Part shown: piece by piece, positions 8,823 to 46,714 of the stretch
Layout: each line of letters starts with the position of its first letter
Numbering within the stretch: the stretch's first letter is position 1
Origin: Escherichia phage vB_EcoM-LTH01
DNA length: 64,000 nucleotides
Sequence record: PP430345
Strand: one strand, 5' to 3'
Program-made: the position numbers and the translations under genes
Notes under the pieces: generated by a model
Database searches by the model: none
What the model was told of the DNA's origin: nothing
Seen by the model: only the letters and a program-made list of their open reading frames with translations

Positions 8823-9374
8823 ATGCGAGTCACTGATAAACATGTGTTCTTTTATTCTTATCGCGATGTTTTTAGTAATCATTACCAGGAGATCTCTCCA
8901 TTCTCAAACTTCGACCAGAAGATGAAGGGGGTTTATTTCCACACTGGTGAGCATTACATGATGTATGAAAAGGCTATGCTTTTCGGTGACAAAGCTTCAG
9001 CGGAAAGGATCATTAAGGCCGTAACGCCGCAAGGTGCTAAAACGCTCGGTCGTAAGGTAAAGAATTTTGATCAGGCAGTTTGGGATGAAAATAAATTTAA
9101 CATTGTGACCCGTTTAGTGTATAGTCGTATGTGTGATAATGGTAATCTCCGTGAACTTGCGGTAGGTTACCGTAAAAAGGGTTTGAAGTTTGTAGAAGCC
9201 TCGCCGAGAGATCGTATATGGGGGATCGGTATGGACGAGAATCATCCTATGGTAGATGATGAAAGTTTCTGGTATGGAGAGAATCTTTTGGGGAAAGCCT
9301 GGGACGAAGCAACGGATATGATTATCGATGTTTCGGAAGCTATGAATATGATTGGTAAATGTGAGGCATACTAA
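8823..9374 (+). CDS. NADAR-family protein (YbiA/DUF1768-like N-glycosidase / ADP-ribose processing)
   Basis: VFFYSYRDVFSNHYQ...FSNF...GEHYMMYEKAMLF...IWGIG pattern typical of NADAR domain. Confidence 0.65.
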   Translation: MRVTDKHVFFYSYRDVFSNHYQEISPFSNFDQKMKGVYFHTGEHYMMYEKAMLFGDKASAERIIKAVTPQGAKTLGRKVKNFDQAVWDENKFNIVTRLVYSRMCDNGNLRELAVGYRKKGLKFVEASPRDRIWGIGMDENHPMVDDESFWYGENLLGKAWDEATDMIIDVSEAMNMIGKCEAY

Positions 9375-26198: not shown

Positions 26199-26677
26199 AC
26201 ATCTGCGGATATGAAAGCACAGACTTCATCAACGGGGAGGGTGTAAGAACCTCCCTGTGGGTTAGTGGATGCAGTCATAAGTGCAAAGGCTGTTTTAATC
26301 AAAAGGCATGGTCATATAGTTACGGAAAAGAATTTGCAGATGAAGATATGGAGAGATTGAAAAAAGATCTTTCTCGTAATTTTATCAGTGGATTATCGAT
26401 CATGGGTGGAGAACCTCTTGACCCTGAGAATATTGATATTGTAAAAAGAATCATCAAGGAAGTAAAGTCGTCCTTTGGTGAGAGTAAAGATATCATGGTG
26501 TGGACAGGGTATCTTTTTGAAGATTTAGATGAGGAAATAAAGAAACACGTTGACTTAATCATGGACGGTAAGTATAATGAAAACAAACCTACAACTAAAA
26601 GATTCAGGGGATCAGATAACCAAAGGCTTTGGAAAAAAGTTAATGGGTACTGGTCAACTGAAGATGAAGGAGGTTAA
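26195..26677 (+). CDS. nrdG: anaerobic RNR activating protein (radical SAM)
   Basis: CSHKCKGC radical SAM cluster motif; overlapping start with nrdD stop. Confidence 0.85.
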   Translation: MNICGYESTDFINGEGVRTSLWVSGCSHKCKGCFNQKAWSYSYGKEFADEDMERLKKDLSRNFISGLSIMGGEPLDPENIDIVKRIIKEVKSSFGESKDIMVWTGYLFEDLDEEIKKHVDLIMDGKYNENKPTTKRFRGSDNQRLWKKVNGYWSTEDEGG

Positions 26678-26678
26678 A

Positions 26679-27296
26679 GTGCCAGCTTATACAGGAATAG
26701 GTTCAAGGGAGACTCCTGAAGAAATATTAAAAATTATGGAAGATGCAGGTTGGAGATTAGCAAGAGTTGGGTACACATTACGATCTGGTGGTGCAGGTGG
26801 CGCAGATGCAGCATTCCAAAGGGGTATGCAGAGGTTTCATGAAGATTGTAATATGACCCAATCACCGAGTAGACTTGCAGAGATATATGTTCCTTGGAAT
26901 AACTTTAAAGGTGGACAGGGACTTAAGGACCTGTATAATATCTCTCTGAATGAAATCGACAAAGATTTCCCACAGCATAAAGAGATGCGTTGGGATTGGG
27001 TGAAAGAAGTTCATGGTGGTTGGGATAAGTTGAGTCAGGGAGCAAGGAAGTTGCACGAAAGAAACGTACACCAGATTTTTGGTAAAAATCTTTCAAATGC
27101 ATACTTGATGCAAAGTAAATTTGTGATATACTACGCAAAGGAAACAAGAACGGGCAATCCCAAGGGTGGCACTGCTACAGCAGTCAATCTTGCAAAGAAG
27201 AGTGGAGTAAGAACACTTAATCTTTGGAAAGAAGACAACATCACAGTGCTTGAGAATTTCTTAGTTAACTTGGAGTCAAAACGTGGTCTTAGATAA
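26679..27296 (+). CDS. DprA/Smf-like (SLOG-superfamily Rossmann) protein
   Basis: GTG 5 nt after GAAGGAGG; GIGSRETP...GYTLRSGGAGGADAAFQRG and C-terminal GGTATAVNLAKKSG. Confidence 0.5.
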   Translation: MPAYTGIGSRETPEEILKIMEDAGWRLARVGYTLRSGGAGGADAAFQRGMQRFHEDCNMTQSPSRLAEIYVPWNNFKGGQGLKDLYNISLNEIDKDFPQHKEMRWDWVKEVHGGWDKLSQGARKLHERNVHQIFGKNLSNAYLMQSKFVIYYAKETRTGNPKGGTATAVNLAKKSGVRTLNLWKEDNITVLENFLVNLESKRGLR

Positions 27297-29449: not shown

Positions 29450-29455
29450 ATTTAA

Positions 29456-29509
29456 AGGTCACCTTTGGGTGGCCTTTTTTATTGACTTGAATTCATGGAT
29501 GTGTATAAT
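29456..29509 (+). promoter_or_regulatory. fused terminator-promoter module
   Basis: AGGTCACCTTTGGGTGGCCT + T6 running into TTGACT - 16 nt - TATAAT. Confidence 0.65.
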
Positions 29510-29534
29510 GATAGTCATCAACTAGGAGAACATA

Positions 29535-29864
29535 ATGAAATATTACATTTACTTTCGAAGAGTGTTTGGTATCAAGACAAAGAAATTAGAAGGCTACGAG
29601 ATGAAGGTCACCCTTGAAACTCTCAACAACCTTGAAGATTACGATGTTATTCCTGTTGCACCAAAGTCAGAAGATGAGTATAATCGTTTTGAAAGGATGC
29701 TTAAGTTAGTTGAGTGTCCGATCGATAATATTTCTTTTGTTAAGCAAGACCCGCTTGAAATCATCAACTATCTTCGTGGTCAAAAGCAAGACATTAAGAG
29801 AAATACAAACTGGAAAGAAGAAATAAAAGATTGGTCTTTAAACTTAAGAGGGGAAAGAGTATGA
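29535..29864 (+). CDS. hypothetical protein
   Basis: first ORF after terminator-promoter module. Confidence 0.5.
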   Translation: MKYYIYFRRVFGIKTKKLEGYEMKVTLETLNNLEDYDVIPVAPKSEDEYNRFERMLKLVECPIDNISFVKQDPLEIINYLRGQKQDIKRNTNWKEEIKDWSLNLRGERV

Positions 29865-30025
29865 CTAGAAATGGTAGTTCAGCATACGAGAAGGGCCGAG
29901 CAGCCGGATTCAAGTTTGGGATGTTCAAGAGAAACAACCCGTATGATCCAAACACCATGCCGGAGCAATTTCAAGATTGGGAATCAGGATTTACAAAAGG
30001 GTATCAAGAAAAGGGGTGGTTATGA
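29861..30025 (+). CDS. hypothetical small protein
   Basis: ATGA overlap; SD GAGGGGAAAGAG; track start 29831. Confidence 0.4.
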   Translation: MTRNGSSAYEKGRAAGFKFGMFKRNNPYDPNTMPEQFQDWESGFTKGYQEKGWL

Positions 30026-30066
30026 GTGGATATGTGGGGATGGAAATAATAGGAGAAGAGAGAGTA

Positions 30067-31317
30067 ATGAAAGTTTACTTGGTAGGTGGCGCAGTTCGTG
30101 ATGAACTGATGAGTGTTGAAAGTAAGGATCGGGACTATGTAGTCGTCGGCGCGACCCATGAAGAAATGATTGAAAAGGGATTTACTAAGGTTGGTGCAGC
30201 TTTCCCTGTGTACCTTGAACCAAACACAAAAGAAGAGTACGCTCTTGCTCGAACGGAAAGATCAACAGGTCCTGGTTATCACGACTTCGAGGTTGTGTTC
30301 TCTCCCGACGTTACAATTGAACAAGACCTGATGCGAAGAGATTTGACCATTAATGCTATTGCCAAGGATCTTTCTACGGGTGAAATTATTGACCCTTGCG
30401 GTGGTGTACTCGATATTGAACTTCGTCGGTTACGTTGTGTATCCACTAAAGCATTTATCGAAGACCCTTTACGTGTATACCGATTAGCCAGATTACATGC
30501 CAGATACGGCGGCGAGTTTACAATTGATCCTGAGACTTGGGGAATGTGCAAGGATGTTGATTTAAGTGCATTGCCAAAAGAGCGTAAATTTGCAGAGATT
30601 AAGAAATGCTTTAGTGATCAGTCAGAAATGAATAAACCTTCGGTAATGATCCGTATGTTGACTCAACTGGGAGAATTTCCTGAGCTTGTGGATTTATACG
30701 ATGTTGTTCAACCCAAGGAGCACCACCCTGAAGGTGATGCATTTGTTCACACTTTACTTTGCATGGATTATGCCCAAGCGACTCGTGCAAGTGAAGCTGT
30801 GAAGTGGGCAGTTCTGTGTCACGACTTAGGGAAATGCATTTATTGGTTAACAGGTAAATTGCACGGGCATGAAGAACATGGTATCAAGTTGACTGAACAA
30901 GTTTGCGATCGCTTTGGTGTTCCTAACAATTGGAAGAAGTTAGCTTTAGCTGTAACTGAGCACCATACACGACTTCACCGTATCAAAGAGATGAAGCCAA
31001 AGAAAGTTTACGACTTGTTGGTAGCCTTACGTGGTGAAAAGGACCAGGCATTCCTTTCTGAGTTTATTGACGCTTGCATCTGTGATGCTCGTGGTCGTGG
31101 CCCTGAAAAAATGTTTGACAACTACACCCAGCCTTTGGTATTATTCTCAGCACTGGCGGGGATTGTTCAAAACAGCGTTGCAATCTCAAAAGAAAGTAAA
31201 GAGATTTCTGAAAGATTTGCTGGACGTCCAGAAGAGATCAAGAATAGAATCCGAAATGTAAAAGTAAGGTACGTTACACAATACATCGATAAGATGAAGG
31301 AGAGTGAAAATGGTTGA
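30067..31317 (+). CDS. cca: CCA-adding tRNA nucleotidyltransferase with HD domain
   Basis: MKVYLVGGAVRDELM head motif; HD motif LCHDLGK; ~416 aa like bacterial Cca; track start 29977 is an upstream extension. Confidence 0.85.
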   Translation: MKVYLVGGAVRDELMSVESKDRDYVVVGATHEEMIEKGFTKVGAAFPVYLEPNTKEEYALARTERSTGPGYHDFEVVFSPDVTIEQDLMRRDLTINAIAKDLSTGEIIDPCGGVLDIELRRLRCVSTKAFIEDPLRVYRLARLHARYGGEFTIDPETWGMCKDVDLSALPKERKFAEIKKCFSDQSEMNKPSVMIRMLTQLGEFPELVDLYDVVQPKEHHPEGDAFVHTLLCMDYAQATRASEAVKWAVLCHDLGKCIYWLTGKLHGHEEHGIKLTEQVCDRFGVPNNWKKLALAVTEHHTRLHRIKEMKPKKVYDLLVALRGEKDQAFLSEFIDACICDARGRGPEKMFDNYTQPLVLFSALAGIVQNSVAISKESKEISERFAGRPEEIKNRIRNVKVRYVTQYIDKMKESENG

Positions 31318-31633
31318 AGGTTATTTGATCGGTTGTCTTATTAGTTGCCCACTTTGGTTCTTACTGATCAAATTACGGCAGAAGGGTTTTAACATTCCGT
31401 TCCCCAAGGATAGTGAAGACCTGTATATCCTAGAACCCCTGAACAATGAAAATGTAAATTTACGTATGGTCATGGTTGGTTGGCTATGTGCAACATTCTT
31501 CTGGTATCTTGTTTACCCAATTATTATCTGTGTTGCAATTGGGTCGTACTTGGTGTTCGGTATAAAAAGTTTATGTGGCCTTACTATAGGGAATGATAAA
31601 TTACTAACTAAGATCTTTGGGGTTAAAAAATGA
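31310..31633 (+). CDS. small membrane protein (paralog 1 of tandem pair)
   Basis: WFLLIKLRQKGFNIPFP motif and two TM segments. Confidence 0.5.
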   Translation: MVEGYLIGCLISCPLWFLLIKLRQKGFNIPFPKDSEDLYILEPLNNENVNLRMVMVGWLCATFFWYLVYPIIICVAIGSYLVFGIKSLCGLTIGNDKLLTKIFGVKK

Positions 31634-31950
31634 CAAGTTTATTAACGTATATTTTATGTTGCATTATAAGTTCTGCCGCTTGGTTCTTGTTAATCAAGCT
31701 TCGCCAGGGTGGGTTTCGTATCCCTTTGCCAGAAAACAGTAACTTACTCGACCCTTTAAATCACGGAAATGTTAATTATAAACTCCTGATGCTAGGTTGG
31801 TTAATAATGACTGTATTCTGGTTTGTAGGGTGGCCTTTCTTGATTTTGTTTTATGCTCTTGCGTGGATTGTTTATTCAACTATGGTTGTTTATAATCTAA
31901 CGATTGGTAATGAAAAGTTTGCAAAACGAATTTTTGGAGGTAAGAATTGA
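31630..31950 (+). CDS. small membrane protein (paralog 2 of tandem pair)
   Basis: WFLLIKLRQGGFRIPLP motif shared with upstream gene. Confidence 0.5.
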   Translation: MTSLLTYILCCIISSAAWFLLIKLRQGGFRIPLPENSNLLDPLNHGNVNYKLLMLGWLIMTVFWFVGWPFLILFYALAWIVYSTMVVYNLTIGNEKFAKRIFGGKN

Positions 31951-32402
31951 AAACTCGGATGTACGTATTGGTAAACAGCTACATGATGGGAATCCAAGCA
32001 GGTATCCAAGCAGCACATGCAGCAGCAAACCTTGTAGGTCATTATGGCTTTGCCTATGCCGATCGATATGATGACAGATACAACCTTGTAGATCAGTGGC
32101 AAAGCAAAGACCAAACAATGATCTTGTTGAACGGAGGCTATCAATCGAAGATGCTTAATTTTGCAGAAGGATTTTTAGCTCCAAACATAGAGAAGATTCC
32201 TTACGCATTTTTCTGCGAGGAGAATGATTCTTTGAATGGTGCACTTACGGCTATTGCTTTTATTCTTCCTCAACATATGTGGGATGTTAAGTTAGTTGAT
32301 GGTCGTTGTCCTCTTTTCTCTGATACAATCGATCATAAGTATACGCAAAAAGAAATGGACTTTATCGAAGCATTTAAATCTTTCAAGCTTAAGCAGGGGT
32401 AA
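31947..32402 (+). CDS. hypothetical protein; tentative PTH2-like peptidyl-tRNA hydrolase fold
   Basis: MYVLVNSYMMGIQAGIQAAHAA loosely resembles the PTH2 VVRxDLxMxxGKxAAQxxHAA motif. Confidence 0.45.
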   Translation: MKTRMYVLVNSYMMGIQAGIQAAHAAANLVGHYGFAYADRYDDRYNLVDQWQSKDQTMILLNGGYQSKMLNFAEGFLAPNIEKIPYAFFCEENDSLNGALTAIAFILPQHMWDVKLVDGRCPLFSDTIDHKYTQKEMDFIEAFKSFKLKQG

Positions 32403-32404
32403 CT

Positions 32405-32803
32405 ATGAAAGTTTCTGAATTGATTGAAGAGTTGCAGAAGTGCCGACCAGATGATAAGGTGTCCATCCCTGTTGAGGTAGGGCATGTAACAATTGGCGGG
32501 ACACCACGCCGTGAAGTAGAGGCAGTGTACAGAGGATTTGACTGGGACAGCAAGCAAGTATTTTTGCATATTTGTGCAGATGAACGCTTGACAGTAATGT
32601 CTAAAGAGGAGTATATTGAACTCATCCGATACAAGCAGTTGGTTAGCGGAATGCGTGGTAAGCAGGACATTGAGCATCTGTCGGATGTATTTGTGAAGAA
32701 AGACTTTGTTATCGAGCGCCTCCAGCGCTTGTCACACGTCGAAGAGTTAGAAACTTTCGAGATCTCGAATCTCATTTCTGAAATTATTGAGGAGAAATTA
32801 TAA
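32405..32803 (+). CDS. hypothetical protein
   Basis: 132-aa ORF. Confidence 0.5.
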   Translation: MKVSELIEELQKCRPDDKVSIPVEVGHVTIGGTPRREVEAVYRGFDWDSKQVFLHICADERLTVMSKEEYIELIRYKQLVSGMRGKQDIEHLSDVFVKKDFVIERLQRLSHVEELETFEISNLISEIIEEKL

Positions 32804-33198
32804 TGACTGCACCAATTTTTGAATACGTTACACTGATCTCTTTCTTTATCTTGGGGCTGATTATCCAGATAGTGGCAGTTGCCTATTACAATCTGAACAT
32901 CGATACCATGAAAAATAAAATCGTATATCAGAAAAAGAAAAGTGTAATTGGTTATTTGTTTACATTCCTTCTATCAGGTTTTGCAATGTACCTCTCATAC
33001 TCTCTGATGCTTTGGGCGGGTAATGTTTCAGATATTGCCACCGCGATTTTAGTGATTCACTGGACTGGTGTAATTTATAGTACAATGATGTGCTTTAAGA
33101 AAAAGCTTAAAATCACCAGTCATGGACTTTATGGGAGCTTCTTTTATACGTTGACACTTGTTGTGTTGATGATCATTTATGGTGTGAAATGCCTATAA
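32803..33198 (+). CDS. membrane protein (multi-pass)
   Basis: four hydrophobic segments. Confidence 0.5.
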   Translation: MTAPIFEYVTLISFFILGLIIQIVAVAYYNLNIDTMKNKIVYQKKKSVIGYLFTFLLSGFAMYLSYSLMLWAGNVSDIATAILVIHWTGVIYSTMMCFKKKLKITSHGLYGSFFYTLTLVVLMIIYGVKCL

Positions 33199-33288
33199 AT
33201 AAAAAAGATTGCACAAGCTGCGTAAACTTTATAAAGATTAAACAGGCCAACTGGGTTGGCTTGTGTGACTTACATGATTGGAGGATAA

Positions 33289-34416
33289 ATGGAAAATTCA
33301 GTTGTGAGTGCTGGAAAGGTAAAAAGTATCGTAGAGAAGATGGAAAAGCATCCAGACGTAGCAAAGGTCTTGATGTTGAGTCTGGCAGGATCTCATGCGT
33401 ATGGTACGAATAACGAAGGCAGTGATATTGATATTCGTGGGGTTTTTGTTGCAACTCCAAATGTGGTTCGTACCCCATTCAAAGAGGTTACTGAATTAAA
33501 CATCCCTGGTGAAGAGGATGCCAAGATCTACGAGTTGGGAACTTTCCTTCAACTGTTTTCGAAGATGAACCCAAATATCATTGAACTGGGTTTTACTGAT
33601 CCGAAAGCCACATTGTACGAGCACGAAGCTTGGAAAGAGATGAAAGAACATTTCTACTCCTTACTGTCTCGTGAAGTTGCATTTCGCTTCAGTGGTTATG
33701 CAATGTCTCAGTTAAAGCGGATCAAGGGTCACAACAAACACATTAATAATCCGCAACCAAAAGAGCCACCAACTCAATTTGACTATTTCCGTCTGGTGCA
33801 GAGCTATCTCGGAGAAGGTGAGTTGAAGTATGAAGACTTTGTTCGTAAATTTAAAAACATGGAAGGCTTCTGTACTCTGGTTCCTTACGGTGGTAACATT
33901 TACGGTGTTGTAGAAGATCGTAGTGAAGATGTTCAACCAATGTTTAATAAAGATGGTTCTATCCGTAAGCTGGATTATGAAGAAATCCCAGAGGAGGTTA
34001 AAAGAGGTAAGACACTGATGATTGTTAAGTATTGTGCAGACGATCATAAATGGGCCAAGGATAAACATCACAACTACTGGGAGTGGGTTAAGAATCGTAA
34101 CGAGAAGCGTCATGAACTGGAAGAGAAGTTCGGTTACGACACTAAACATGCTATGCATTTGGTCCGGCTTCTTCGGATGGGTGAAGAAATCCTCACAGAA
34201 GGTAAAGTTTTAGTGAATCGACCAGACGCTGAAGAACTCCTCGCAATCCGAAATGGTGAATACCGCTATGAAGAAATTGTTGACTGGGCTGAAGAAAAAG
34301 ATAAAATGATCACAGATGTTCTTTATAAGCAATCGAGCTTACCGAAGAAAACAGATCTGAAGATTGTTGAAAAACTTATTCTGGAGGCACAAGACAAGGT
34401 ATGGAAGGAAACCTAA
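33289..34416 (+). CDS. Pol-beta-superfamily nucleotidyltransferase
   Basis: LSLAGSHAYGTNNEGSDIDIRGVF = GS-x(9)-DxD NTase motif; ~300-aa helical C-terminal region. Confidence 0.6.
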   Translation: MENSVVSAGKVKSIVEKMEKHPDVAKVLMLSLAGSHAYGTNNEGSDIDIRGVFVATPNVVRTPFKEVTELNIPGEEDAKIYELGTFLQLFSKMNPNIIELGFTDPKATLYEHEAWKEMKEHFYSLLSREVAFRFSGYAMSQLKRIKGHNKHINNPQPKEPPTQFDYFRLVQSYLGEGELKYEDFVRKFKNMEGFCTLVPYGGNIYGVVEDRSEDVQPMFNKDGSIRKLDYEEIPEEVKRGKTLMIVKYCADDHKWAKDKHHNYWEWVKNRNEKRHELEEKFGYDTKHAMHLVRLLRMGEEILTEGKVLVNRPDAEELLAIRNGEYRYEEIVDWAEEKDKMITDVLYKQSSLPKKTDLKIVEKLILEAQDKVWKET

Positions 34417-34889
34417 TCTATGAAAAAATAATCACTGCTCTGAACATGGATGTTCAGCGAGAAAGATTTTTCGTTATCCGATGGATTGAGGAAAGATTAG
34501 CAAAAGATCAAGATAACGAAAAAGAATTGATAGAGGAAGTTACTGTAAGACTTACTGAGGAGTTTTCTTACAAGGTAAGCAACGGTATAGTTCAAAACGT
34601 GATTTTGTTTTCCGAGATAGATGACTTCTTCATGGAGAAAGATAAGCCTACGATCGATGAACTTAAACTTCTTGAAGCTTCTATGCCAAAAATGTTCGCT
34701 TGGTTAAGTAGACTCTGTGTTGAAATACAGGAGGCATTTGATCATCCTCACTCTTGCAGTATAGACTATCATCCTCGTGAGGCTGTTTGTAGTGGACAAG
34801 GGTGCGGAAGGATAGGTTTTGTAAACTACAAAGATTCAGAAACCAATTGGCAATTCTTCTGTGGAAGATCTCCACGGTGTTGCCCATAA
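34401..34889 (+). CDS. hypothetical protein with Cys/His-rich C-terminus
   Basis: HPHSCSIDYHPREAVCSGQGCGRIG...FCGRSPRCC. Confidence 0.45.
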   Translation: MEGNLIYEKIITALNMDVQRERFFVIRWIEERLAKDQDNEKELIEEVTVRLTEEFSYKVSNGIVQNVILFSEIDDFFMEKDKPTIDELKLLEASMPKMFAWLSRLCVEIQEAFDHPHSCSIDYHPREAVCSGQGCGRIGFVNYKDSETNWQFFCGRSPRCCP

Positions 34890-34902
34890 GGGGAGAGGAA
34901 AA

Positions 34903-35406
34903 ATGAAAATTTTAAAATTACTAACGAAACTCCATAACGAAAATAAGGTTATCGAATTTCATACGGAGCAAGAACTCAACTTCTTCGGAAGTTTCAGTAC
35001 AGAGGACAATCTTGTCGAAGGATTTTTTAAATTTAAAAATTTCGATACCCTCTTTGTTGTGGAGTCTTTAGAATACATTGTGTATTTCGAAGGTGTTTGG
35101 CGTTTAGCTGCTGGAAAATTTCGTGTTGTCGGACATGAAGAGATCGAAGAACAAAAACCAGGTTATCATCTGGATACTTTCCCTCGTGGAGAACTTGGAG
35201 AGATCACTAAGATTCAAGAAGAACTTGATGAACTTAAGGATGCAGCCAAACAAAAATGCAAGATCATGGAGTTGGTAGAGCTTTCTGATCTGGTCGGTGC
35301 TATGGAAGCCTACCTGAATAAGCATCATCCAAACACTTCACTGGAAGACCTGATGGTTATGTCAAAAATCACTAAACGTGCATTCCAGAATGGTAAGCGA
35401 GGCTAA
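34903..35406 (+). CDS. hypothetical protein, possible MazG-like helical domain
   Basis: ATG after AAGGGGAGAGGAAAA; ELGEITKIQEELDELKD...ELVELSDLVGAMEAYL. Confidence 0.5.
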   Translation: MKILKLLTKLHNENKVIEFHTEQELNFFGSFSTEDNLVEGFFKFKNFDTLFVVESLEYIVYFEGVWRLAAGKFRVVGHEEIEEQKPGYHLDTFPRGELGEITKIQEELDELKDAAKQKCKIMELVELSDLVGAMEAYLNKHHPNTSLEDLMVMSKITKRAFQNGKRG

Positions 35407-35407
35407 A

Positions 35408-35986
35408 ATGTCAAACATTGACTTCACATTATTTATTGATGCTCATAGTTGGTGGAAATGTAAAGGTTTCAATGATAAGGTTGTCCCAAGCTATGTAGAT
35501 GATGAAGCTATGGACCATACATGCCCCGAAGATGTTACTGATCTTCGCATTGTCCAGAACGGGAAATATGCAGTGGCTTCAGCAGAGCAATCATTCCTTC
35601 AACTCGACAAAGAGGGGAAGTTGGAAGATGGCAGTTGGATGGCTGTGACTCCATGCTTTCGTGATGAGATGGTTCTTGATGATATTCATTTCAATATTTT
35701 CTTAAAGATGGAACTGTTTAGAAGTGCCAGTAGTAAAAAGAATGCAGAGAAGATTTCTCACGAGATCGCAAAAGATGCCATATCGATGTTTACCCTCTTA
35801 GGGATTCCTCGTGACGTACTCTTTTTAGTTAAGACTCCGATCGGTTACGATGTTTATTGTGACGATATGGAGATTGGGTCCTACGGTGCTCGAAAAACAC
35901 TCACTGGTAAATGGTATGCATACGGAACTGGCCTGGCTGAACCAAGGACTTCGATCGCGATTCAAAAATATCGAGGAAATGAATAA
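35408..35986 (+). CDS. hypothetical protein; tentative minimal class-II aminoacyl-tRNA-synthetase-like core
   Basis: VTPCFRDE...HFNIF (motif-2-like fRxE) and YGTGLAEPRTSIA (motif-3-like GxGxxxxR); start moved to ATG after stop overlap. Confidence 0.45.
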   Translation: MSNIDFTLFIDAHSWWKCKGFNDKVVPSYVDDEAMDHTCPEDVTDLRIVQNGKYAVASAEQSFLQLDKEGKLEDGSWMAVTPCFRDEMVLDDIHFNIFLKMELFRSASSKKNAEKISHEIAKDAISMFTLLGIPRDVLFLVKTPIGYDVYCDDMEIGSYGARKTLTGKWYAYGTGLAEPRTSIAIQKYRGNE

Positions 35987-36187
35987 AATTTCACATTAAG
36001 GTATACCCTATGGGTCAGATCTGGTCCATAGGTATTTTCTATGTATTAAAATCGATTTAAGTTATTTAAATACTTTTTTGAAGTCTTGTTGTAAAAATTA
36101 ACAACATAGTGTTCATGACCGATCTTCGCTGTTGTATTTTTTCATAATATGATAAAATGTGTTCAGCTTAGTGGAAGGATGGTCATT

Positions 36188-42044: not shown

Positions 42045-43244
42045 ATGTTAGAAATGTTGAACTTAGGTGCTGTGGCCTCTCTACCGCCGATTGATGGTGA
42101 AATTTCACCTGAATTTATCCAAGCGCAGCAATCGATAGTTATGTATCTTCACAGGCCAACTGGCAATCTTTACGGGTATGGTAATGCACCTGTATACCGA
42201 TTCGGAGACGGTATCCCAACAGAAGTGCCGAGCTTTAAACTTATCTATTCAAACTGTAAATATTTCTGGTTGGGTCAGGCTAGTACACTTGTTGCAACAA
42301 ACGATGATAAATTCTATTATGCTGGGGTCAGAAACGCATTTCCACCACTGGGGACAGGTGGTGGTAACGTTGCTTACTTTACTGAAGTTACAGTACATTT
42401 TAACAATATTGGTGTGACACCTGATGATATAAAAACTCTGGCGCTCGGTAGCGGATCTTGTAGGCTTCTGACAAAAGATGGTCGTGTTTTCTGCTGTGGT
42501 CTTAACTCTAATGGTGAGTGTGGGAACGGTACAAGAAATATGATTGCAAACTTTGTCCAGATCACCAATATGGGACCTATATCTCAATTGGCTACAAGGG
42601 CTTTCGGTACTCATTTCTTAACTGAAGATGGCAGGGAATTCTTTGCAGGGTACGATGCTTACGGGGAAAGTGGCCTAGGTGCTCTTAACAGCCACTTACA
42701 AACTCCAACATTGGTTACTTCGGGTGTTAAAAACATAATTGTTGCTACGGTATGTACTTGGAGAATAATGCAAAATGGAGACGTGTATTGGAGCGGTTTG
42801 AATACTCAAGGTTCTGCGGGAACAGGTTCATTTAACAACGCAGGTACGGTCCTAAGACCTATAAAAAACGATGCCTTGAGTGGAAACTTACCGGAGGGTG
42901 ATTTATTATATCCATCAGGCATCCAAACAGGTGATGCAACGGGTGCTCCGATCATTTGTTTCGGGAGAAACACTATCAAAAACGGTGGTGAAAACGGATC
43001 AGGTCAAGTGGGTGATGGTGTAAGTTATACATCGGTATATAACTATGTGGACATGTACAAACCTGCAACCTTCGGAGATAAAAAGGTTATTGGGGTGGCT
43101 AAAGATTATGTACGATCATTTATCTTAACTGAAGATTATCAATTGTTTGCCGCAGGTGGTAGAACAGCAAGTGGATGGACACTCCCTGATGGAGGGACCA
43201 GTGTTACACCCATGCGCCTCATGGCTAGTATGCCTTGGTACTAA
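42045..43244 (+). CDS. RCC1-like Gly-rich repeat protein, paralog 1 of 4
   Basis: starts MLEMLNLG; repeated G-x-N-x-x-G-x-x-G-x-G units such as CCGLNSNGECGNGT and WSGLNTQGSAGTGS. Confidence 0.7.
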   Translation: MLEMLNLGAVASLPPIDGEISPEFIQAQQSIVMYLHRPTGNLYGYGNAPVYRFGDGIPTEVPSFKLIYSNCKYFWLGQASTLVATNDDKFYYAGVRNAFPPLGTGGGNVAYFTEVTVHFNNIGVTPDDIKTLALGSGSCRLLTKDGRVFCCGLNSNGECGNGTRNMIANFVQITNMGPISQLATRAFGTHFLTEDGREFFAGYDAYGESGLGALNSHLQTPTLVTSGVKNIIVATVCTWRIMQNGDVYWSGLNTQGSAGTGSFNNAGTVLRPIKNDALSGNLPEGDLLYPSGIQTGDATGAPIICFGRNTIKNGGENGSGQVGDGVSYTSVYNYVDMYKPATFGDKKVIGVAKDYVRSFILTEDYQLFAAGGRTASGWTLPDGGTSVTPMRLMASMPWY

Positions 43245-43257
43245 TAAGGAGAATAGA

Positions 43258-44391
43258 ATGTTAGAGATGTTAAATTTATCTGGCGCGGCAGGGAAGGTCC
43301 CATTTAAGTTGAAAAAGTTTGATATTACAGCAAGCGAAAGTATTCACTTGCTTAGTGAAGCTGGCAATCTGTACTCAATATCACCTACAAATGTAAACTT
43401 ATCGGGAACGGGTGTTACCACAACGCAGTGGACGTTAGTCTCTTCGGGTGTAGATGACTTCTGGGCTGGGCAAGCTTCGCTCTTGTTCAAAACAAAAGGG
43501 GGATCGTGGTTTATTACAGGGTATAACTTCTTCGTACCTAGAGTAGAGAATACGCCCGTTGACGTAACGGCTAAGGTAATGGCAATCAATAAGCCGATAA
43601 GAAAAATAGAAATGGGTGCTAATGCGATCGCTTTCCTTTATACAGATAATACTCTGGCAGTTGCGGGATCAGGCCCCCATTTAGGCTTAGGTTCCAATAC
43701 TTCAGTCCCGAATTTAACTTATGTTGAACCACCAAATACTTCGTTGGGTATCAAAGATGTTGCGATATTGGATACTTCAGTTACTACCTGGATTATAAGC
43801 GGGGGTGATGTATACGGATGTGGAAACGGGGCTTACTCTAAGTTTTCTTCTTCCAACGGGACAGGCCAAAGGACCTCTTTTGTTAGGATACCAAACCCAA
43901 TAAACTCAGCACCACTTGCATTAAAGACTGGATATGAGTGCGTGTATATTTCAGGCTCACGCACAGACGGGGATGAATTGATACTCGGCTTAGGTAGCAA
44001 CGCATATGGGTCATTAGGTGCAGCATCTACTGTTGCAACTGTAACTGACATATCTGTAGTCACAAGCAGTGTTTATTCACCCGCTTACGGGTTTTACCCT
44101 CTCGCCCAAGGTCTTGTGAGGAGAATAAATAACAATATCGGTATTACGGGGAGGACTGCGGGGACAGGCTGGGGATTGGGAACTCAGACGTATTACGGTA
44201 TTACTAGAATAACCACTACAGCAAGTCCGTTATGGGGTCAAATATTTCAAAGGGGTGAGTATACAAACACTTACGTTCTGGCAGAAGATGGTATTTTGTA
44301 TGGGTCGGGTGGGGCTTCAACAGGTAAATTACCTGGTTACACAACAGATCAGTCAACCTATGTGCCACTGGACCTTACCGGACTTGAATAA
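43258..44391 (+). CDS. RCC1-like Gly-rich repeat protein, paralog 2 of 4
   Basis: AAGGAGAATAGA SD then MLEMLNLSG; track start 43147 overlaps paralog 1. Confidence 0.7.
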   Translation: MLEMLNLSGAAGKVPFKLKKFDITASESIHLLSEAGNLYSISPTNVNLSGTGVTTTQWTLVSSGVDDFWAGQASLLFKTKGGSWFITGYNFFVPRVENTPVDVTAKVMAINKPIRKIEMGANAIAFLYTDNTLAVAGSGPHLGLGSNTSVPNLTYVEPPNTSLGIKDVAILDTSVTTWIISGGDVYGCGNGAYSKFSSSNGTGQRTSFVRIPNPINSAPLALKTGYECVYISGSRTDGDELILGLGSNAYGSLGAASTVATVTDISVVTSSVYSPAYGFYPLAQGLVRRINNNIGITGRTAGTGWGLGTQTYYGITRITTTASPLWGQIFQRGEYTNTYVLAEDGILYGSGGASTGKLPGYTTDQSTYVPLDLTGLE

Positions 44392-44400
44392 GGAAAAATT

Positions 44401-45540
44401 ATGTTAGAGATGATGAACTTAGGTTCTGTCGAATTGCCAGAAGTGGAAGGTAACGTTAAGAAATTCGCCGCCGGAGGTACGGGGATTGTTGTACTTATGA
44501 AATCCGGCAACGCCTACGGTATCGGAGATCAATACTTCAGCGGTACAGGGGGGAATGTTACAACATGGAGGCTTCTGGCAAGAAACGTTGCAGATATATG
44601 GGCTGCAACTGGCTCTGTGCTTATGAGGACAACCGCAGATAGATGGTTGTTTATGGGGTTTAACCAATATTTTAATACTGGTTTTGGAACTACGATAACC
44701 ACCCCCAGAGATATAACTACAGATATGCCTATACCCGAAGGATTTGAGATCAAGCAGTTGGTACTCGGGTATCGTAACTTGGCTGTTGTCTTTACCAATG
44801 GGCGGTATGCAATGTGCGGGACTAATAACGCAGGAGGTCTGGGGACAGGGGACACTTTTGCAGTAAGAACCTTAACCTTAAGAACTGACTTCACAAACGT
44901 TGAAAAAATAGATCTTGATTGGGCAACCTACGACACATCTTATCTTCTTACCCAAGCTGGTGAAGTTTATGTATCAGGTGTTTCAAATAATGGACAAAAC
45001 GGGACAACTTCAAACACTACAACTTGGTTTAGGCAAAGCCCAATTAGTGGTGGTACGGTAGTTGACATAATCGCGACAACGCTTGGGTTTTTTAGGGTTG
45101 TACTTTTAAATGGTAATTACTACGTCTACGCACAAGGGCGAAGTTCGTCAGGGAGTCTTGGGGTAAATAACTCAGGTAACATAAACGTTCTTTCACCCTC
45201 ATTGGTATTTTCTAATGTACCTTCAAGACCTCCTTTGTACATTGGTCACCTTAGCGCCCGTATTCTCCACCCCGAAGAAAGGGTATACTATACAGGGGCG
45301 GCTACGGGTAGTTTACAAGGAGCAGGTGCACAATTTCAGTCGTCGTATTCAGTATTTACACGGCTTGCAGAGACTGTACCGTATGGTGGAGAATATTCAT
45401 CCCTAAAAGGTGGCTATGTTGCACACTACTATGTAGATAAAGGAAACCTATATGGTGTCGGTAATAGCAGTGCAGGATTGCTCCCAGGTTACATAGGTAC
45501 ACAACTCTTCGAATTTACACCGTTGGAATTGCCGGAGTAA
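44401..45540 (+). CDS. RCC1-like Gly-rich repeat protein, paralog 3 of 4
   Basis: MLEMMNLG start; CGTNNAGGLGTGDT; C-terminal LLPGY...LELPE. Confidence 0.7.
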   Translation: MLEMMNLGSVELPEVEGNVKKFAAGGTGIVVLMKSGNAYGIGDQYFSGTGGNVTTWRLLARNVADIWAATGSVLMRTTADRWLFMGFNQYFNTGFGTTITTPRDITTDMPIPEGFEIKQLVLGYRNLAVVFTNGRYAMCGTNNAGGLGTGDTFAVRTLTLRTDFTNVEKIDLDWATYDTSYLLTQAGEVYVSGVSNNGQNGTTSNTTTWFRQSPISGGTVVDIIATTLGFFRVVLLNGNYYVYAQGRSSSGSLGVNNSGNINVLSPSLVFSNVPSRPPLYIGHLSARILHPEERVYYTGAATGSLQGAGAQFQSSYSVFTRLAETVPYGGEYSSLKGGYVAHYYVDKGNLYGVGNSSAGLLPGYIGTQLFEFTPLELPE

Positions 45541-45562
45541 AAAACTTCAAAAGGGGAATTAA

Positions 45563-46714
45563 ATGTTAGAAATGATGAACTTAGGCACTGTTAAACTTCC
45601 TGCGGGAGGAGGCAGGGTCAAGAAGTTTGCAGCGGGGCAACAAGGCATCGTTGTACTTATGGAGTCTGGGAAACTCTATGGTCGCGGAAGTCAGTATTTT
45701 AGTGGTACAGGGTCTACTGTAAACACTTGGAAACTGCTAGGAACAGATATCGCAGACGTATGGACGGGTCCCGTATCAACTCTTGCAAGGACAACAGACG
45801 ACAGATGGTTGTTTATGGGATTGAACCAATATTTTAACACTGGTTTTGGGACAACATGGTCCGCGCTGACGGATGTTACAGTGGATATGCCTATCCCTGT
45901 TGGCCTTACGGTTAAGCAGGTAGTGATGGGATACATAAACGTTGCAGTAGTCTTTGCAAATGGACAATATGCCATGTGTGGGACAAATGTCTCCGGTGGA
46001 TTGGGTGTTGGTAACACATCACCTGTGAGAACCTTAACATTAAGGACCGATTTTACGAACGTGGAGAAGATAGACCTCGATTGGGGGACATATGATACCT
46101 CCTATCTTCTTACCCAAGCTGGTGATGTTTATGTGGCCGGACAATCTTCTTATGGTCAAAACGGAACACAGTCTAGCTCCACAACTTGGTTCAGGCAAAG
46201 TTCAGTTAGCGGCGGGACAGTGGTAGATATAGTTGCAACAACCTTAGGGTTCTTCAGGATCGTTCTTTCATCAGGGAGTTACCGAATATATGCGCAAGGG
46301 AGGGACATAAACAATAGTCTTGGAACTAACACCACAAGCAACACACCTCGACTGGCCCCTGTATTAGTTCTTTCGGGAATAGCAAGTGCAGTAAGACCAA
46401 GGGTATATATCAGTCACTATGCTGCCCGAGTTATAGATAGCGATGGAGTAGTATACTTTACAGGACAAGGGACGGGAGATCTACAGGGTGTTGGGACCAC
46501 ACCTCAACCAACGTATCGTGTTTTTTCACAGCTTGACCCAATAGTTCCGTCCGTAGGTGATTATTTTTCCACAAGATCTCAGTACCTGACTAACTATTAT
46601 TTGGAAGATGGTGTTCTGTATGGTGTTGGTCAGGGTGCTCAAGCAACACAGTTACTACCTGGTTATGGAACGACACAGGTTCTGACTTTCTCTGTTCTGG
46701 AATTACCGGAATAA
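45563..46714 (+). CDS. RCC1-like Gly-rich repeat protein, paralog 4 of 4
   Basis: MLEMMNLG start; CGTNVSGGLGVGNT; C-terminal LLPGY...LELPE; followed by terminator. Confidence 0.7.
   Translation: MLEMMNLGTVKLPAGGGRVKKFAAGQQGIVVLMESGKLYGRGSQYFSGTGSTVNTWKLLGTDIADVWTGPVSTLARTTDDRWLFMGLNQYFNTGFGTTWSALTDVTVDMPIPVGLTVKQVVMGYINVAVVFANGQYAMCGTNVSGGLGVGNTSPVRTLTLRTDFTNVEKIDLDWGTYDTSYLLTQAGDVYVAGQSSYGQNGTQSSSTTWFRQSSVSGGTVVDIVATTLGFFRIVLSSGSYRIYAQGRDINNSLGTNTTSNTPRLAPVLVLSGIASAVRPRVYISHYAARVIDSDGVVYFTGQGTGDLQGVGTTPQPTYRVFSQLDPIVPSVGDYFSTRSQYLTNYYLEDGVLYGVGQGAQATQLLPGYGTTQVLTFSVLELPE

Follow-up and report, generated by a model that had tools for sequence, protein, structure and literature searches.

Why would a coliphage gather enzymes for tRNA 3' ends in one apparent operon? 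The question is raised by a block of genes at positions 29482-36032 of a 64,000-nucleotide stretch of DNA from Escherichia phage vB_EcoM-LTH01 (sequence record PP430345), which was analysed at its full length and is called the window here. Many anti-phage systems damage tRNA, among them the anticodon nucleases PrrC and RloC, PARIS, retron-linked nucleases and 3'-end-modifying enzymes, and the phage counter-measures are known mainly as repair by an RNA ligase with a kinase-phosphatase and as replacement tRNAs. The block points to a different phage answer, ligase-free repair of the tRNA 3' end. Three uncharacterised families of the block, a divergent PTH2-fold family, a minimal synthetase-like family and a small MazG-like family, recur beside RNA-repair genes in unrelated phages, and the operon is probably a tRNA-end repair kit. 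In full, our reading is that it works independently of a ligase and keeps tRNA 3' ends usable during infection against host toxins or defence nucleases, to which we give a probability of roughly 55%.

The 6-kb region showed 94-95% identity to the Escherichia phages A7_1, A5-4, A73, W70 and UPEC06, which are Vequintavirinae myoviruses of ~137-145 kb; a protein of A5-4 carries the source name Septuagintavirus sv54. An original prediction, made from the nucleotide sequence, had named four open reading frames (ORFs) here, for a CCA-adding enzyme, a PTH2-like protein, a Pol-beta-type nucleotidyltransferase (NTase) and a class II synthetase-like protein. All four were found on the + strand at the coordinates below, together with the motifs quoted for them (MMGIQAGIQAAHAA, AGSHAYGTNNEGSDIDI, TPCFRDE and YGTGLAEPR). 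Two genes between the NTase and the synthetase-like gene had been overlooked, those for the Cys-tail and MazG-like proteins, which proved to be the nearest associates of the synthetase-like gene. The six proteins on which the argument turns are as follows.

30067-31317, + strand: E. coli-type multifunctional CCA-adding/repair enzyme, class II NTase head plus HD domain (Pfam, NCBIfam, PHROG)
31947-32402, + strand: PTH2-fold protein, candidate divergent Pth2-like esterase (AlphaFold (AF2) model, Foldseek, phrog_3668 'hydrolase')
33289-34416, + strand: RlaP-family Pol-beta nucleotidyltransferase (Pfam PF10127, phrog_388)
34401-34889, + strand: 162-aa Cys-tail protein with a zinc-ribbon-like end, ...CSGQGC...FFCGRSPRCCP (phrog_12113; without a Pfam match)
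34903-35406, + strand: protein with a C-terminal MazG/HisE-like domain of ~83 residues (nt 35155-35403; phrog_6408, 1.8e-36; alternative GTG start at 34861)
35408-35986, + strand: 192-aa minimal class II aminoacyl-tRNA synthetase-like catalytic core, seryl-tRNA synthetase (SerRS)-like, without a tRNA-binding domain

By its sequence, the product of the CCA gene is a class II CCA-adding enzyme, with CCA addition itself predicted by homology. It matched Pfam PolyA_pol (PF01743, 3.6e-19) and HD (1.9e-8) as well as phrog_2244 (8.7e-132), and its residues 1-408 aligned with positions 1-405 of the 409 of NCBIfam PRK10885 (E 5e-114; 381 bits, under the equivalog cutoff of 451). These matches and the colinearity with PRK10885 bear out the earlier call of a CCA-adding enzyme with an HD domain. 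The catalytic carboxylates of the head (GGxVRD and DxD) were present (GGAVRDELMSVESKDRD; GGAVRD...DRD), and the templating region, EDxxR plus RRDxTxNA, reads EQDLMRRDLTINA, with RRDLTINA present. The EDxxR element appears as QDLMR; its Asp and Arg agree with the motif, and in place of the first Glu the window, A5-4 and UPEC06 have Gln, whereas this residue is Glu in the CCA enzymes of phages CR9 and Barba19A. The CCA gene of UPEC06 (locus L001, 5968-7309) is split: a short tandem duplication, with two copies of ARGRGPEKMFDNYSQPLVLFSALAG, causes a frameshift close to the C-terminus, which reflects either a genuine disruption or a fault of the assembly.

The NTase proved to be an RNA-repair enzyme of the RlaP family, which narrows the earlier Pol-beta call. 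It scored 68.6 bits against Pfam RlaP (PF10127, 8.8e-19; cutoff 23) and 3.9e-79 against phrog_388, and the Pol-beta GS...DxD motif is present (GSHAYGTNNEGSDIDI). The family is said to have been defined in a survey of RNA-repair systems by Burroughs and Aravind in 2016. RlaP of Pseudomonas adds 1-2 nucleoside monophosphates (NMP) to the 3'-OH of RNA in vitro, and NrdC.11 of phage T4 belongs to the same family (PMC12776372, 2025 preprint). RlaP, CCA enzymes, Thg1 and PTH2 are already known as phage RNA-repair components from a survey of jumbo phages (PMC7824862). In locus L018 (~8900-9230), RlaP matched two separate ORFs, suggesting a frameshifted or split gene.

The PTH2-like protein has, according to its structure model, the Pth2 fold and stands beside tRNA enzymes, yet it is not a canonical Pth2. 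Its AF2 model, with a predicted local distance difference test score (pLDDT) of 91.7, matched nine chains of solved structures in Foldseek at E<=0.001, every one of them a Pth2, including 2zv3, 1xty, 1q7s and 1wn2 (probability 1.0, template modelling score to the target of ~0.7). The earlier PTH2-like call was thus right at the level of the fold. The link came through the fold search only, the family profile having found zero significant chains among the PDB sequences. Alignment by hhalign with five real Pth2 sequences (E 5e-4, probability 31%) placed GIQAAHA on AAQVAHA (Q21~Q22, H24~H25), and a manual alignment placed the invariant E91 at the position of Pth2 Asp86; we take K18 and D86 of Pth2 to be its catalytic residues. 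The family occurred in ~113 of 50,697 phage genome records. A suspected fusion of a PTH2-like protein with Thg1 in locus L115 turned out to be two adjacent genes.

The earlier class II synthetase-like call also stood at the level of profile and fold, with the core being SerRS-like. The protein carries P27 (motif 1), R85xE...F98xKxE102 (motif 2) and G173-T-G-L-A-E-P-R180 (motif 3), and these residues were invariant or nearly so in 38 diverse sequences of the family. The antiparallel-sheet catalytic fold was closest to SerRS, which outscored both HisZ and the histidyl-tRNA synthetase (HisRS) in sequence and structure searches. The SerRS-type elements TxE (SAE), fRxE, FxKxE, ExxS and GTGLAxxR are kept, which suggests, on sequence grounds, that the protein would activate serine or a small amino acid like it. 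Database entries label members of the family 'seryl-tRNA synthetase' or 'histidyl tRNA synthetase'. A canonical SerRS or HisRS was rejected, with the tRNA-binding domains missing, tiny equivalog scores (20.3 bits against 301.65 for NCBIfam serS TIGR00414, covering model positions 189-330 only) and HisRS not among the sequence matches. The family appears to be essentially phage-borne: the few matches in bacterial assemblies that were examined lay on phage-like contigs, and the carriers include coliphages, T4-like Acinetobacter phages, and Caulobacter and cyanobacterial phages.

The ~83-residue domain encoded just upstream is a predicted MazG/HisE-like all-alpha nucleoside triphosphate (NTP) pyrophosphohydrolase, for which the evidence is weak but consistent. 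The acidic motif EExxE...ExxD (E22, E23, E26, E42 and D45) was invariant in 11 diverse members. Pfam PRA-PH matched 10 of these 11 weakly (best E 1.9e-5), with the window's domain reaching 15.7 bits (E 0.02-0.03) against a cutoff of 21.3, and the family profile found SSO3215 and HisE in the PDB at a weak E of 0.16-0.2. In four large-phage contigs of 142-578 kb (L041 9148-9978, L050 8986-9951, L052 9058-10008 and L033 8788-9612), the MazG-like domain follows an N-terminal domain of ~190 residues with a conserved FGLGFIQLK...HFW...HDHRY pattern, which could be metal-binding. Pfam searches of these N-terminal domains, the Cys-tail protein and the 132-aa protein of the block (listed below) gave zero matches.

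Of 80 viral loci with the synthetase-like gene, 78 also had the MazG-like domain, mostly directly adjacent to it. Among the 50,697 phage genome records, the synthetase-like family was found in 274 and the MazG-like family in 277, with matching genus counts, and the two were adjacent by coordinates in every phage record compared. They occur in one chain in gp131 of Microcystis phage Ma-LMM01 and in the metagenomic locus L073. The MazG-like domain is as conserved as the synthetase-like protein, with 47-53% identity to that of the window in nine of the ten other aligned lineages and 34% in Ma-LMM01. Because of this near-strict pairing, the matching records, the fusions and the equal conservation, we treat the two as one enzyme system, and there is a real chance that it is a new one. 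The synthetase-like proteins P0069 and P0075 carry the Cys-rich tail as a C-terminal fusion; these fusions aside, the Cys-tail protein was confined to Vequintavirinae-like loci. The strict pairing and its fusions appear to be undescribed in the literature searched, where we found no description of the synthetase-like family or its MazG-like partner; an earlier description may exist.

Conservation of the neighbourhood was examined in 80 synthetase-like viral loci (of ~775 synthetase-like loci) and 61 PTH2-like viral loci, counting CCA, RlaP, Thg1, RNA ligase (Rnl), PNKP and RtcB as repair-type genes with local hidden Markov models (HMMs). With so few seed sequences behind the HMMs, the counts are minimum values, and the relatedness of many loci makes them non-independent. 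A repair gene lay within 6 kb in 33 of the 61 PTH2-like loci and within 1.5 kb in 22 (CCA in 15, RlaP in 8 and Thg1 in 6). For the synthetase-like gene, the corresponding numbers were 34/80 within 10 kb and 21/80 within 3 kb, with the repair gene on the same strand in every case. The order of the window (PhoH, Clp protease, methyltransferase, CCA, PTH2-like, RlaP, MazG-like, synthetase-like) was found again in the Certrevirus CR9, a Cronobacter phage, and on a phage-like contig that forms part of a B. pseudomallei assembly. Since this order could be inherited, associations outside the lineage weigh more. In Rheinheimera phage Barba19A and in Vibrio phage 496E54-1, the CCA, PTH2-like and RlaP genes stood directly side by side and their ends overlapped; CCA abutted the PTH2-like gene in Vibrio phage Va1, and the PTH2-like gene neighboured RlaP in Xanthomonas phage XacN1.

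Around the synthetase-like gene, the layouts were unrelated to one another. One lineage has Rnl1-Rnl2-PTH2-like-x-x-synthetase-like-MazG-like, and jumbo phages have Rnl1...synthetase-like-MazG-like-RlaP; in further loci Thg1 lay 2.2 kb away, RtcB lay 2.3 kb away, or Rnl, PNKP, Thg1 and RlaP were present together. When 20 genes of the window were tested, only RlaP, PTH2-like, CCA, MazG-like, SLOG/DprA-like, methyltransferase and one weak Clp-protease match (L061, 5e-05) were found near synthetase-like genes outside the Vequintavirinae-like loci L016-L020. From these comparisons, the clustering seems to go beyond what inherited order would give. The order shared with CR9 and the B. pseudomallei-assembly contig, and the cassettes in unrelated phages, supplied the co-conservation by which the original prediction had proposed to be judged. 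By this comparison, the block divides into two recurrent cassettes, CCA/PTH2-like/RlaP and synthetase-like/MazG-like; the former, built around a divergent acidic Pth2-fold family, appears to be undescribed in the literature searched.

Two neighbours of such loci deserve mention in their own right. The 239-aa protein at 26577-27296 of the window showed a weak DprA/SLOG-like Rossmann match (Pfam DNA_processg_A, 0.0039), and homologues of it also occur close to synthetase-like genes at three loci outside the Vequintavirinae, L021, L054 and L055; L054 and L055 carry Rnl1 and PNKP. In L063 (10759-11517), a gene for a DNA/RNA non-specific endonuclease (Pfam Endonuclease_NS, 1e-19) comes next after Rnl1-Rnl2-PTH2-like-synthetase-like-MazG-like.

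The set of tRNA genes and ligases bears on which damage the block could address. A tRNA search confirmed that the window has no tRNA genes, and an Rfam search of the whole window returned zero RNA families. The relative A5-4 has five tRNA genes (Met-CAT, Tyr-GTA, Gly-TCC, Gln-TTG and Pro-TGG; locus L005, 42734-44489), which lie ~3 kb beyond the equivalent of the window's start and are unannotated in the GenBank record. CCA is encoded in all five; the CCA enzyme is therefore unneeded for the maturation of A5-4 tRNAs, and a role as maturase of phage tRNAs was rejected on this ground. Neither the window nor the complete genome of A5-4 gave a local-HMM match to Rnl1, Rnl2, RtcB, PNKP or Thg1; the sole ligase is a T4 gp30-like DNA ligase. 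The association with an RNA ligase from which the RlaP family takes its name was likewise seen in neither, with RnlX included in the search. Because no RNA ligase, PNKP or RtcA/RtcB was detected in A5-4, the module alone cannot reseal breaks in the anticodon loop. The missing RNA ligase and the CCA-encoding tRNA genes therefore point to ligase-free 3'-end repair, a configuration that appears undescribed in the literature searched. The original prediction had suggested the repair or re-charging of tRNAs damaged by host anticodon or CCA-end nucleases, or the tagging of a host target, and is partly supported: its family guesses and the co-conservation with repair genes held, re-charging is hypothetical for an acidic protein without a tRNA-binding appendage, and the proposed repair of anticodon-nuclease breaks is unlikely here, given that RNA ligase, PNKP and Thg1 went undetected in complete A5-4. 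Four ORFs of ~380-400 aa at 42-46.7 kb were considered as RNA ligases and proved to be RCC1-like propeller proteins. They are four consecutive + strand genes (399, 414, 379 and 383 aa; window 42045-46714) that form a tandem paralogue array, all RCC1-like beta-propellers (Pfam WD40_RLD, 1e-9 to 4e-26) and hypothetical in A5-4.

In the repair that we propose, tRNA 3' ends that were trimmed, extended, blocked or acylated by host toxins or defence nucleases would be restored in steps. The protein assignments, operon layout and gene associations were computed here from sequences and models, and we infer the catalytic roles. The PTH2-fold protein would hydrolyse an acyl, aminoacyl or peptidyl ester at the terminal ribose and free the 3'-OH, as its fold and neighbours suggest. 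The HD domain of the CCA enzyme, to judge from E. coli Cca, would strip 2',3'-cyclic or 3'-phosphates. RlaP would then add 1-2 nucleotides to shortened 3' ends, as the Pseudomonas enzyme does in vitro, after which the CCA enzyme, by homology, would rebuild CCA. More speculatively, the SerRS-like and MazG-like proteins, with the Cys-tail protein in this lineage, would form a complex that acts at or after the last repair step. It would probably form the adenylate of serine or another small amino acid and transfer the residue to a ribose hydroxyl of the restored tRNA end or to a nucleotide, while the MazG-like subunit would cleave a nucleoside-triphosphate or pyrophosphate-bearing substrate. Such a kit, which unblocks, heals and rebuilds, is the most economical explanation, because RlaP and the CCA enzyme extend a 3'-OH and a Pth2-fold esterase would free a blocked one.

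Several observations weigh against this reading. The PTH2-like protein scored 16.6 bits against Pfam PTH2 (PF01981; E 0.0097) and did not reach the cutoff of 23; it has G15 and Q17 at Pth2 K16 and K18, the lysines of the GKGK of S. solfataricus thus being lost, and its family is acidic, with a median pI of 4.9 compared to 9.2 for solved Pth2. The synthetase-like protein is acidic as well (net charge ~-8) and has no SerRS N-terminal coiled-coil arm, anticodon-binding domain or other tRNA-binding part. It is hard to see what an NTP pyrophosphohydrolase would do in aminoacylation, and simple aminoacylation alone does not account for the near-obligate MazG-like partner. In 46 of the 80 synthetase-like loci, no repair gene was detected within 10 kb, and phAPEC8 has the pair flanked by a helicase gene and by genes for ribonucleotide reductase. 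With few-seed HMMs and related loci, the enrichment of repair genes is suggestive and not a probability. Furthermore, the membrane proteins and three further genes of the operon are unexplained by a repair kit.

Some of these points fit a different division of labour, in which CCA, PTH2-like and RlaP form a tRNA-end module and the synthetase-like and MazG-like proteins a separate two-subunit nucleotide or small-molecule enzyme. The MazG-like subunit would make NMP or dNMP from a triphosphate, the class II-like ligase would couple an amino acid to it, and the operon position would be inherited order. A parallel is MazZ of Z-genome phages, a MazG/HisE-type enzyme that supplies dGMP to PurZ. Consistent with such an enzyme, the MazG-like domain is the only near-universal partner of the synthetase-like gene, the 46 loci have no detected repair gene nearby, the synthetase-like protein is acidic and without a tRNA-binding domain, and the pair lies amid helicase and ribonucleotide-reductase genes in phAPEC8 and near DNA-metabolism genes in locus L012. 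However, in several unrelated lineages the pair is found near RlaP, Rnl1, Rnl2, Thg1, RtcB or PTH2-like genes, often within 1-3 kb. The carrier phages are also very diverse, and we know of no DNA modification that they share. In addition, the active site resembles that of SerRS, an enzyme whose natural acceptor is a terminal ribose of tRNA. A separate enzyme is therefore possible in our view, if rather doubtful.

Another conceivable role is that of a sensor. HisZ is a regulatory subunit for ATP phosphoribosyltransferase, and GCN2 has a HisRS-like domain; the synthetase-like protein could similarly be a regulatory subunit that binds an amino acid or uncharged tRNA and switches on or off a MazG-like hydrolase degrading an alarmone or nucleotide pool, so that host translation is kept running. 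The strict 1:1 gene ratio with occasional fusion and the invariant metal-binding acidic residues of the MazG-like domain would suit such a switch. The catalytic arginines of motifs 2 and 3, the metal-binding residues and the SerRS-like amino-acid pocket were nevertheless invariant across the 38 diverse members, which argues for catalysis over binding alone, and SerRS outscored HisZ and HisRS; we consider a purely regulatory role unlikely. Least probable by far is that these are ordinary translation helpers, with the CCA enzyme maturing phage tRNAs and the 192-aa protein serving as a working seryl- or histidyl-tRNA synthetase. The database names and the five tRNA genes of A5-4 would agree with it, but all five encode CCA and none is a tRNA-Ser or tRNA-His, the protein is a catalytic core only, lacking both the coiled-coil arm and the anticodon-binding domain (serS 20 vs 302 bits), and HisRS was not among its sequence matches. 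The ligase-independent repair kit thus stays our preferred explanation.

Beyond that, we tentatively suggest that the ~190-aa SerRS-like and ~83-aa MazG-like proteins make up a new, apparently phage-specific two-component enzyme, and that the PTH2-fold family is a second novelty, a tRNA-end esterase for repair. If this possibility is right, the two-component enzyme would be the smallest natural class II synthetase-like ligase, and the pair would serve counter-defence with RNA or tRNA 3' ends or nucleotides as its targets; it might cap or re-acylate ends after repair, for instance, or reverse the addition of pyrophosphate or nucleotides by host toxins. The acidic PTH2-fold esterase would then be dedicated to repair and not to ribosome recycling.

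The whole region is encoded on the + strand, and most start and stop codons abut or overlap. Some 13 genes make up one apparent transcription unit at 29482-36032, which matches the block outlined in the original prediction and which, from its sequence, looks like a single operon of a Vequintavirinae coliphage. Because the totals of promoter-like and terminator-like sites in the region were not above those of shuffled sequence, the boundaries of the unit are set by position (the intergenic gap) alone. The interleaved small membrane proteins that had been noted before number three, with 2, 2 and 3 hydrophobic segments. The boundary elements and the remaining genes are as follows.

29454-29477, + strand: terminator-like hairpin, directly 5' of the promoter
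29482-29509, + strand: near-consensus sigma-70-like promoter, TTGACT-16-TATAAT, proposed 5' boundary of the unit
29535-29864, + strand: 109-aa protein, first gene of the block, hypothetical in A5-4 and UPEC06, kept only in Vequintavirinae-like loci L016-L020
31304-31633, + strand: small membrane protein with two hydrophobic segments (phrog_17692, 3e-20; hydropathy), paralogue of 31630-31950
31630-31950, + strand: small membrane protein with two hydrophobic segments (phrog_17692, 2.7e-33; hydropathy), paralogue of 31304-31633
32405-32803, + strand: 132-aa protein (phrog_12566, 7e-56; without a Pfam match), only in Vequintavirinae-like loci
32803-33198, + strand: membrane protein with three hydrophobic segments (phrog_12739 'membrane protein'; hydropathy scan)
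36007-36032, + strand: terminator-like hairpin, then a T-rich tail, 21 nt past the stop codon of the synthetase-like gene, proposed 3' boundary

The ~200 bp at 29865-30066, just 5' of the CCA gene, are absent in A5-4 and UPEC06; for A7_1, A73 and W70, the megablast match begins at query position 1 and so spans them. This region includes part of a 64-aa ORF with a TTG start (29831-30025), with homologues in loci L019 and L020. A reading of this ORF as similar to the ribosome modulation factor (RMF) was rejected: its E against Pfam RMF was only 0.042, and it is not kept at that position in CR9 or locus L008 and is absent from A5-4 and UPEC06.

The analysis names three protein families for direct testing, for which the present annotations are misleading or empty. 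A class II core of 190 residues with intact motifs bears on the minimum size of enzymes that form aminoacyl-adenylates, and such a minimal synthetase core may serve enzyme engineering.

Comparison with known systems places the block close to, and apart from, several of them. The phage CCA enzyme shares with E. coli Cca (PRK10885) the end-to-end architecture of a class II head plus HD, but it falls below the equivalog cutoff and has Gln as the first EDxxR residue in this genus. As in the RtcB-RlaP-RtcA operons of Pseudomonas and the Pnkp-Rnl1-NrdC.11 set of T4, a RlaP-family NTase stands in a conflict-related RNA-repair setting. However, neither an RNA ligase nor PNKP or RtcA/RtcB was detected in the whole genome of A5-4, and the window carries three families absent from the descriptions of those systems in the literature searched. 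Truncated synthetase paralogues with other acceptors are represented by the amino acid:[carrier protein] ligase Bll0957 and by PoxA/GenX; GluQRS/YadB is also a truncated paralogue that aminoacylates another acceptor. The synthetase-like protein is much smaller (~190 residues, as opposed to chains of 296 in Bll0957 and 297 in GenX) and is coupled to a MazG-like domain, as no known truncated paralogue is. Archaeal and eukaryotic Pth2 have the fold, the QxxH helix motif and, in the manual alignment, an acidic residue at D86 in common with the PTH2-like protein, which differs in lacking the GKGK lysines, in being acidic and below the Pfam cutoff, and in an extra C-terminal region of ~40 residues. 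The phages of the jumbo-phage survey have bona fide PTH2 (PMC7824862), and the family in the window is more divergent. With the MazG/HisE pyrophosphohydrolases, the partner domain shares the EExxE...ExxD motif and weak matches to PRA-PH (10/11) and to SSO3215/HisE, but it is a minimal domain of ~83 residues that always lies beside, or is fused to, the synthetase-like protein.

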